A stretch of 64,000 bases of DNA, from IMG/VR virus record IMGVR_UViG_3300048928_000639, positions 4,045-68,044 of that record, one strand, 5' to 3'. Positions 56,789-57,604 of this stretch are shown here, piece after piece (positions within the stretch are counted from its first letter, which is position 1; the number at the start of each line of letters is the position of its first letter). Under the pieces are notes generated by a model that was given only the letters and a program-made list of their open reading frames with translations, ran no database searches and was not told the DNA's origin. Both the position numbers and the translations under genes were made by a program. The stretch comes from a virus.

Positions 56789-57604
56789 ATGCGCATCCTC
56801 GTAGTCGAGCCGGACGCCACTGTCGCTCAGTCGATCGAAATGATGCTGCGGTCCGAACGCTTCAATGTCACCGTGGTTAGCACCGGTGCGGAAGCCTTCG
56901 AACTCGCCACGCTCTACGACTACAACCTGATCACGATGGCACTCGATCTGCCGGATATGTCGGGCTACGACGTCATCAAGCAATTGCGTCAAACCCGCTG
57001 CAATACGCCAATCCTGATCTGCTCTGGCCTCGCCGGGATCGAGGACAAGGTCAAGGGTCTCGGTATTGGTGCCGACGACTATCTGACCAAGCCTTTCCAC
57101 AAGGACGAGTTGGTCGCACGTATCCACGCGATCGTGCGTCGCTCCAAGGGGCTTGCGCAGAACGTCGTCACTGTCGGCGACGTCGTTGTCAATTTCAGCA
57201 ACCGCACCGTTCATGTGGCCGGTACTGACGCAGGTCTGACCGGCAAAGAGTACCAGATGCTGGAGCTTATGGCGCTCCGCAAAGGTGCGACGATCACCAA
57301 AGAGATGTTTCTGTCGCACCTGTATGGCGGCATGAATGACCCCGATATCAAAATCATCGACGTGTTCATCTGCAAGCTGCGCAAGAAGCTGCCAGCGGGA
57401 ACCGTTGAGACGATCTGGGGTAGGGGCTACGTGCTGCGCGATCCGGAGGGCGCCGAGCAGGGATCCGGTTCGCTCGCATCAGAACTGTCGCAACTGGTCA
57501 ACAGCCCGCCATGGCGCGTCGGCAAAGGGGGCAGTCTGGTCGCGCACGATAAGGCCAAGATGGCGCGGGTTTCGTCGCCGCCGTTGGCTCCGGTGCTGCC
57601 GTGA
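56789..57604 (+). CDS. ctrA: Phage-encoded CtrA homologue with degenerate receiver domain (D51A, D8P) and C-terminal extension
   Basis: [49 protein letters not shown]...[38 protein letters not shown]. Confidence 0.92.

Follow-up and report, generated by a model that had tools for sequence, protein, structure and literature searches.

A temperate phage encodes a full-length CtrA with a pseudo-receiver and a conserved C-terminal tail, predicted to act without phosphorylation

We describe a CtrA-like regulator (P0001) encoded in a 64,000-base stretch of phage DNA (hereafter the window), which comprises bases 4045-68044 of the 68,044-base IMG/VR provirus record IMGVR_UViG_3300048928_000639 (estimated completeness 100%). 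In Alphaproteobacteria, CtrA stands at the centre of the circuits for cell cycle, motility and gene transfer, and it is normally gated by both phosphorylation and proteolysis. P0001 combines a receiver domain whose catalytic residues D8 and D51 are replaced, a DNA-binding domain that carries the recognition helix of cellular CtrA, and a long C-terminal tail that is conserved in a family of viral and metagenomic relatives. Based on these features, we consider it reasonably probable that P0001 is a phosphorylation-independent, phage-owned transcription factor of CtrA specificity, used to drive or reshape the host CtrA programme.

P0001 is read from a single stop-free frame, with the following layout:

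56789..57604, + strand: coding sequence of the CtrA-like regulator, 271 amino acids, stop included, with Pfam domains PF00072 and PF00486
56795..57124, + strand: pseudo-receiver, residues 3-112 (PF00072, E 1.2e-24)
57227..57436, + strand: winged-helix DNA-binding domain, residues 147-216 (PF00486, E 1.2e-15), with a CtrA-type recognition helix
57440..57601, + strand: C-terminal tail, residues 218-271, a diverged copy of the family tail (alignments A1, A4 and A6)

The receiver plus OmpR/PhoB winged-helix architecture is thus present in full, and the protein is 67-69% identical to Bradyrhizobium-type CtrA over residues 1-224. The original prediction, made from the DNA letters and their translations, had taken this gene for a CtrA homologue with an intact DNA-binding helix, and both claims hold. 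The top NCBIfam model is CtrA (NF045991) at 329.2 bits, with PmrA as runner-up at 168.8 bits; the score lies below the NF045991 equivalog cut-off of 350 bits, but CtrA still leads every other family by 160 bits. In its recognition helix (residues 188-201), P0001 does not differ from the consensus of 20 cellular CtrAs, and these two observations together support the reading that P0001 has CtrA specificity. In an AlphaFold2 (AF2) model, the predicted local distance difference test score (pLDDT) is 90-97 over the receiver and above 90 across most of both domains, with block means of 76-78 in two 10-residue stretches.

Next, we compared the receiver with its closest solved structure, the Brucella CtrA receiver (PDB 4qpj chain C; E 4.3e-47, residues 1-118). 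At the N-terminus, MRILVVEPD in P0001 stands opposite MRVLLIEDD in 4qpj, so that EPD replaces the acidic EDD; around residue 51, 4qpj reads IILLDLNLPDMSG, and P0001 has M-A-L-D opposite L-D-L-N. The codons for P8 (CCG, 56810-56812) and A51 (GCA, 56939-56941) are each two base changes away from GAY, which makes a single-base read error unlikely. E7, D9, S79 and K101 are retained, and residue 53 is Asp. P0001 is therefore a pseudo-receiver protein in the sense that the receiver fold remains recognisable with the catalytic residues D8 and D51 replaced, and the alignment and codons rule out normal phosphorylation, as had been proposed. The idea that D53 might act as an alternative acceptor fared less well: this Asp is found in only 1 of the 14 members of the clade described below and is private to P0001, and is thus not a conserved feature.

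To place these substitutions, we tabulated both sites in the query and its 119 best database matches. Asp occupies position 8 in 112 of these 120 proteins and Pro the same position in 8; position 51 is Asp in 112, Ala in 5, Glu in 2 and Asn in 1. The seven Pro8 matches besides the query (P0006, P0007, P0010, P0052, P0011, P0042 and P0116) share with it a long, motif-bearing C-terminal tail, and one further match, P0056, has the same tail but keeps EDD and D51. The sole Asn51 case (P0077, a 233-amino-acid metagenomic protein) is of canonical length, tail-less and with EDD intact. Of 58 loci returned by an IMG/VR scan, 13 have a CtrA-like gene (44-62% identity) that is readable at both sites; among these, position 51 is Asp in 6, Glu in 6 and Gly in 1, and the acidic pair is intact in only 4.

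We then assembled an alignment (A6) of 21 distinct tail-bearing proteins from viral contigs and metagenomes (16 from metagenomes), which are 41-79% identical to the protein of viral locus L004. Four other family members with available DNA are 53-58% identical to P0001 across the full-length multiple alignment, a distance at which synonymous sites are saturated. Across this family, position 8 is Pro in 13 members, Ser in 3, Asp in 2 and another residue in 3, while position 51 is the canonical Asp in 3, Ala in 5 and Glu in 6; the remaining 7 have a shortened or deleted loop or carry Cys, Gly or Ser there, and in 3 of them the alignment is ambiguous, with an Asp one or two positions later. D8 is thus gone in 19/21 and canonical D51 in 18/21 tail-bearers. 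The original prediction had allowed that close homologues might keep D51, which would have made the change a private one; the loss is instead shared. Other parts of the protein show the opposite behavior: K101 is present in 19/21 tail-bearers, R198, K200 and the WGRGY motif in all 21, the open frame is intact in 21/21, and invariant motifs lie in the DNA-binding domain, in beta5-alpha5 and in the tail. In two members, P0126 and P0129, the receiver is far more eroded, with the DNA-binding domain and tail retained. P0001 itself forms a singleton cluster known from one contig; one DNA run, labelled root metagenome, contains 0.97 of the sampled words of the stretch, although this is possibly the source sample and not independent support, and no RNA run was found among the runs listed as containing the stretch.

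P0001 (271 amino acids) is longer than cellular CtrAs (231-235 amino acids in 80/80 fetched), with a tail that extends about 54 residues beyond GRGYVLR for a net gain of about 38 residues. The family tail follows the pattern SPSLAPE.RDMIDDPP ... SPS[LI]VP. We define the family by a CtrA-type core followed by S-P-S-L-A-P-E ... P-P ... S-P-x-[LIV]-x-P; the P0001 tail aligns to the family tail, and S228 and E232 are invariant in the nine-sequence alignment A2. We searched a profile of five tails (A4; the window plus four viral loci) against 1.84 billion representative proteins, obtaining 8 matches at E <= 0.001. Five are real, each with the tail directly after a CtrA-type motif, and the other three are repeat proteins that we took as noise; discounting these, the A4 profile found no protein of non-CtrA type with this tail among the 1.84 billion. 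A word-based search with the P0042 tail added six further members. A C-terminal Ala is present in 3/21 tail-bearers vs. 74/80 cellular CtrAs. The original prediction that the usual C-terminus is replaced therefore stands in part: the Ala-ending tail is indeed gone, but what took its place is a diverged copy of a conserved family tail, not an arbitrary replacement or the mere loss of a degron. In AF2 models of P0001 and the L004 protein, pLDDT falls to 41-65 in the tail (47-58 in P0001), with one or two short helices, a signature of a disordered docking segment. Neither the tail profile nor the AF2 models pointed to a function. We regard the tail as a conserved, family-specific module that is predicted to be disordered and that most likely docks a partner.

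For phylogenetic analysis we removed the tail and columns 8 and 51, keeping only the core of the alignment, and ran a quick search with midpoint rooting. P0001 falls in a clade of 14, separate from the cellular CtrAs, that contains all tail-bearers tested as well as P0028, which carries the NCBI name CtrA of Bradyrhizobium liaoningense. The tail-less viral genes of L005, L008 and L010 are placed outside this clade and may represent separate captures. End branches are mostly 0.1-0.7 within the clade, compared with 0-0.055 for rows from cellular genomes. Conservation among the 14 members is uneven: alpha4-beta5-alpha5 and the recognition helix both reach an identity of 0.87, against 0.74 for the receiver as a whole and 0.69 for the DNA-binding domain, while cellular CtrAs stand at 0.94-1.00 throughout. 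No member has a stop or frameshift. This pattern indicates that purifying selection maintains the dimer face and DNA reading, and since the dimer face is among the best-kept parts, the receiver is not simply decaying. In addition, the sisters P0052 (Ala51) and L009 (Glu51) are joined with a Shimodaira-Hasegawa-like approximate likelihood ratio test (SH-aLRT) support of 99, and the alternation of Ala and Glu between them suggests that the identity of residue 51 no longer matters.

In addition to viral relatives, we surveyed cellular CtrAs. A scan of genome contigs, from which the best 80 loci were kept, returned canonical CtrAs of 231-235 amino acids in every case. A second survey (this query, E <= 1e-50) covered 401 genomes drawn from the Bradyrhizobium family, of which 381/401 had a CtrA match and 22/401 had two or more. 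The tail-bearing type was not found in these 401 genomes at this threshold, although unsampled genomes may have it. Second copies in the 22 genomes have D51 wherever it is readable (one fragment starts past it), and none has the tail. These 22 genomes (G024, G352, G122, G217, G273 and 17 others; loci L174-L221) hold two or three CtrA copies of cellular type; these copies are mostly 231-235 amino acids long and most end in Ala, and a few have altered acidic pockets, such as L195 (ENN), L196 (EDS) and L221 (EDN).

We also analyzed the region upstream of the gene, where the following features were found:

56578..56592, + strand: CtrA-box-like site TTAAAAGAATGTTGA (TTAA-N7-TTGA), whose 3' half is the -35 hexamer
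56589..56603, + strand: stereotyped promoter core TTGACTCTCACGATT, one of 15 copies in the window
15585, 17980, 28983, 29518, 32162, 33176, 35062, 38157, 39006, 41379 and 45837, - strand: copies of the promoter element
46527, 51620, 56589 and 61223, + strand: copies of the promoter element
56653..56786, + strand: 44-codon leader open reading frame (ORF), ending in the junction TGACCATG with the regulator start

The promoter element, aaTTAATgTTGACTCTCAnGATTaatt...TAnGGT, occurs 15 times in the window vs. 0.03 expected. All copies are co-oriented with the genes downstream of them and stand before structural, replication and accessory operons, and the spacer, which does not vary, points to a dedicated factor or a global operator. 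TTAA-N7-TTGAC is formed at just one of the 15, the copy in front of the ctrA-like gene. Aligned upstream regions of related phages all share the GTTGAC -35 (6/6), and in L009 the TTAA-N7-TTGAC arrangement recurs (TTAACTTTGTGTTGA, 216 bases upstream of the start) as the sole near-site in 16.7 kb. The placement of the box over the -35 hints at input from host CtrA or at positive autoregulation. We considered whether the 15 promoters might all be targets of P0001 and set this aside, as a flanking TTAA is present in a minority of copies (upstream in 6/15, downstream in 7/15) and the cores differ between related phages (TTGACTCTCA in the window, GTTGACATACAAC in L004, GTTGACAATAAAC in L017). A promoter and terminator scan of 55500-59500 returned nothing above shuffles, and the pattern TGTTGACNNNNNAC was not enriched. 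Downstream of the promoter, the leader ORF of the window matches no Pfam family, and L009 has a leader ORF of similar size that encodes an unrelated peptide and ends in the same TGACCATG junction. The recurrence of this stop-start junction (56783-56791 in the window; about 7994-8003 in L009) despite unrelated leaders suggests translational coupling.

That the gene is phage-borne, as originally proposed, is supported by its surroundings. The provirus record carries terminase, portal, head, tape measure, tail fibre and integrase genes, and PHROGs matches comprise the large terminase, portal, major head protein, tape measure, tail fibre, helicases, a primase-helicase and a DNA methyltransferase. 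The regulator lies in the replication/early region of the provirus, among these neighbours:

48470-49630, + strand: DUF2800 (Pfam)
50914-51645, + strand: ThyX (Pfam)
51689-52525, + strand: Enc34-type single-stranded DNA-binding protein (SSB; Pfam)
53533-55584, + strand: DNA polymerase A (Pfam)
55605-55847, + strand: DUF4326 (Pfam)
56158..56574, + strand: VRR-NUC-like nuclease gene directly upstream of the regulator (PF08774, E 1.4e-4, below cut-off)
58120-58599, + strand: RlpA-type lytic transglycosylase (Pfam)
from 62789, + strand: integrase, extending beyond the record end (Pfam)

The first 4.1 kb of the record (L061) hold phage-type genes judging by ORF translations (lysozyme-like and membrane proteins), with no tRNA gene in these 4.1 kb. 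A phage-like left end together with an integrase at the right end places the regulator within a temperate phage and not in host flank. The host is probably Bradyrhizobium-like, judging solely by similarity to Bradyrhizobium-type CtrA. Parts of this neighbourhood recur in other phages: a VRR-NUC-like homologue stands directly upstream of the ctrA-like gene in L003, L004, L009, L010 and L017 (of which L010 and L017 are without a tail or are cut before it), and SSB-like, DUF2800 and, in L004, integrase genes are also common to these loci at 40-65% protein identity. Synteny kept at this level of divergence indicates that the regulator has long been resident in the phage lineage.

Several other genes in the window deserve mention in their own right. 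A small ORF at 57846-58109 (+ strand; at most 87 amino acids) matches no Pfam family but has counterparts behind the ctrA-like genes of L003 and L009; at 63-70% identity, it is better kept than most shared genes. At the left end of the window, an O-antigen/O-acetyltransferase gene (155-1273, - strand; PHROG 3333, E 2.2e-46) is likely a lysogenic-conversion gene. Finally, a DNA methyltransferase of 526 amino acids is encoded at 44022-45602 (- strand; PHROG 67); if it proves to be of CcrM type, it would form a second link to the host cell-cycle circuit.

Compared with cellular Hyphomicrobiales CtrA, P0001 is colinear across receiver and winged helix and retains the identical recognition helix, S79, K101 and one 18-residue face; it differs in the replacement of D8 and D51, in a 54-residue conserved tail in place of the short one that usually ends in Ala, in its prophage location and in evolving about 10x faster. 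Engineered CtrA D51E and D51A alleles exist in Caulobacter, where Glu51 is a partly active phosphomimetic. The same residue is changed in P0001 (Ala) and in six relatives (Glu), although here the changes are natural, phage-fixed and joined with D8P and a new tail, and the activity is predicted from sequence. In Rhodobacter capsulatus, overexpression of CtrA D51A raised gene transfer 2-fold, making this form biologically active (PMC6363796).

Receivers without catalytic residues are known from other systems. The atypical regulators ChxR (Chlamydia), HP1043 (Helicobacter) and GlnR (actinomycetes) likewise keep the receiver fold with the catalytic residues gone and are expected to be active in unphosphorylated form (PMC4395418, PMC3960148), and OmpR/PhoB pseudo-receivers commonly dimerise on alpha4-beta5-alpha5 without phosphorylation (PMC12632262), with ChxR as one example (PMC3960148). 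These regulators are cellular and have their own targets, whereas P0001 is the virus-borne copy of a master regulator of the host and has the host's DNA-reading helix.

Phage ctrA genes have also been described before. The phage RDJL Phi 1 CtrA lacks the response-regulator N-terminus (Fogg 2019, PMC6363796): its gp37 ('transcriptional regulator CtrA', from a Roseobacter phage) is a 151-amino-acid protein with a winged helix-turn-helix only, unlike P0001, which keeps a complete receiver fold. Together with RcGingersnap gp59 and a vB_PmaS-R3 protein, it forms a set of phage ctrA stubs that resemble P0001 in being phage-encoded, in carrying a CtrA-type winged helix (41-50% identity over about 70 residues) and in having no link to the host phosphorelay, and that differ from it in having no SPSLAPE tail. 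Overall, a CtrA-type winged helix behind an unrelated N-terminal domain was found in 21 Rhodobacter phage records and in Paracoccus phage vB_PmaS-R3. The proteins of Rhodobacter phage RcGingersnap (gp59; L001:2512-3117) and vB_PmaS-R3 (L186:1162-1962), labelled in GenBank as 'helix-turn-helix DNA binding domain protein' and 'CzcR-like response regulator', respectively, share an N-terminal domain (MQN..NL.RRG.LTEQQ) followed by the CtrA-type winged helix, and look like a second, unrecognised phage family with CtrA-like DNA specificity.

In our literature search, no phage CtrA that combines full length, a pseudo-receiver and a conserved tail came up, although the supplements of PMC6363796 and PMC9437464 could list phage ctrA genes. 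A text search of PMC9437464 gave no mention of a phage-encoded CtrA, 'CtrA' occurs once in PMC8601537, in a reference title, and the main text of PMC8224337 does not contain it. This agrees with the original statement that no phage CtrA variant without the phosphoacceptor had been described, as only receiver-less phage stubs were found. What appears to be new here is thus the full-length phage CtrA with pseudo-receiver and conserved tail, the receiver-less stubs being already known.

In our preferred reading of P0001 as a phosphorylation-independent factor, D8P and D51A would leave the protein unable to bind Mg2+ or accept a phosphoryl group, with its fold and beta5-alpha5 dimer face preserved, and a pseudo-receiver with a kept dimer face would be expected to dimerise and to bind TTAA-N7-TTAA regardless of CckA-ChpT. 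The receiver would then serve as a permanent dimerisation module for a head that reads CtrA boxes. Transcription would start from one of the 15 stereotyped phage promoters, with the box over the -35 allowing activation by host CtrA or by P0001 itself, and in the early/replicative phase the phage would force a CtrA-type programme, or a copy of one, onto host genes for the cell cycle, motility and envelope, with the disordered tail docking a partner. Dimerisation, DNA target, expression timing and host effect are all points that we infer from the sequence of P0001. The G1-like arrest, ChpT sequestration and escape from ClpXP considered in the original prediction are likewise extrapolations from Caulobacter biology. 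A broader and more speculative proposal, possible in our view but tentative, is that tail-bearers form a distinct viral class of rewired master regulator, in which a CtrA head, a permanent dimer module with interchangeable Ala/Glu51 and a disordered docking tail tied to a host machine (RNA polymerase, a protease adaptor or a polar hub) would lock or reset the cell cycle without CckA-ChpT and ClpXP, under box-driven positive feedback.

A number of observations weigh against the preferred reading. Perfect TTAA-N7-TTAA sites are absent from the window, and allowing for 1 mismatch yields only the site at 56578-56592 in 64 kb vs. 3.59 expected, so near-sites are not enriched. The box lies over the -35 in only 2/6 related upstream regions and is absent or elsewhere in four other relatives. 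The P0001 tail is the most diverged of its family, with 25-37% identity to four others. The full phospho-site is retained in P0056, L006 and the clade member P0028, which makes its loss frequent but not obligatory in the family. Support for the clade of 14 is moderate (SH-aLRT 94, not starred), given the quick search, long branches and midpoint root. Finally, both domains evolve about 10x faster than in cellular CtrAs, which would permit a changed DNA specificity.

The conserved surfaces of P0001 might alternatively be those of a dominant-negative decoy, which would block CtrA boxes, form dead heterodimers with host CtrA via alpha4-beta5-alpha5 or sequester ChpT, and thereby shut the host CtrA programme (e.g., flagella/pili receptors, or a replication block). 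The dimer face and helix alpha1 have 0.88 and 0.74 identity to cellular CtrA, and Ala51, found in 5/21 members, is the classical phospho-null change. Host CtrA is, moreover, needed by other alphaproteobacterial phages, such as Jorvik (PMC10589892), and binds phage regulatory regions (PMC9437464), so that interference is a plausible phage strategy. A pure blocker, however, would not need the transactivation-loop residues Y179, G180, G181, P185 and K188, which are invariant in A2 (in the 21-sequence A6, Y179, P185 and K188 are invariant and G181 nearly so). Nor does a decoy sit well with the partly active phosphomimetic Glu51 in 6/21 members, or with the Glu/Ala swap between sisters. The loss of alpha1 from P0126 and P0129, which retain the DNA-binding domain and tail, further argues that ChpT docking is not the conserved function, and we judge a decoy role to be unlikely overall.

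P0001 could also be a phage-internal regulator, such as a late or lysis-lysogeny switch, with little tie to host CtrA targets and a specificity that may have drifted. An operon structure with a stereotyped promoter, fast evolution and a box at its own promoter that is the only CtrA-like one are all compatible with such a role. We nevertheless find it rather improbable, because a regulator of this kind would have no second near-match to TTAA-N7-TTAA in the 64-kb window, TTAA flanks only the minority of promoter copies noted above, and the recognition helix stays as in cellular CtrA while promoter cores vary between related phages. Least probable of all, and to our eyes very nearly dismissed, is a decaying passenger, in which a captured host ctrA is losing function and the odd residues and tail reflect neutral decay or assembly error. 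Long branches, the heavily eroded receivers of P0126, P0129 and P0134, and the singleton status of P0001 would be expected under decay, but this explanation looks refuted by family conservation: frames are intact in 21/21 members, with invariant motifs in the DNA-binding domain, beta5-alpha5 and tail, synteny is kept in diverged phages, P8 and A51 recur in relatives, and the tail is conserved and found only in a CtrA-type setting.

As a natural, phage-fixed CtrA without the phosphorylation gate and the usual Ala end, P0001 would offer a tool to separate the role of DNA-bound CtrA from that of its phosphorylation, and in the Ala/Glu51 swap between sisters, evolution has itself tried out the classical D51A and D51E alleles. 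The family tail, in turn, points to a binding partner. More broadly, this family of regulators would reveal a route by which temperate phages infecting rhizobia-type bacteria exploit the host cell cycle.

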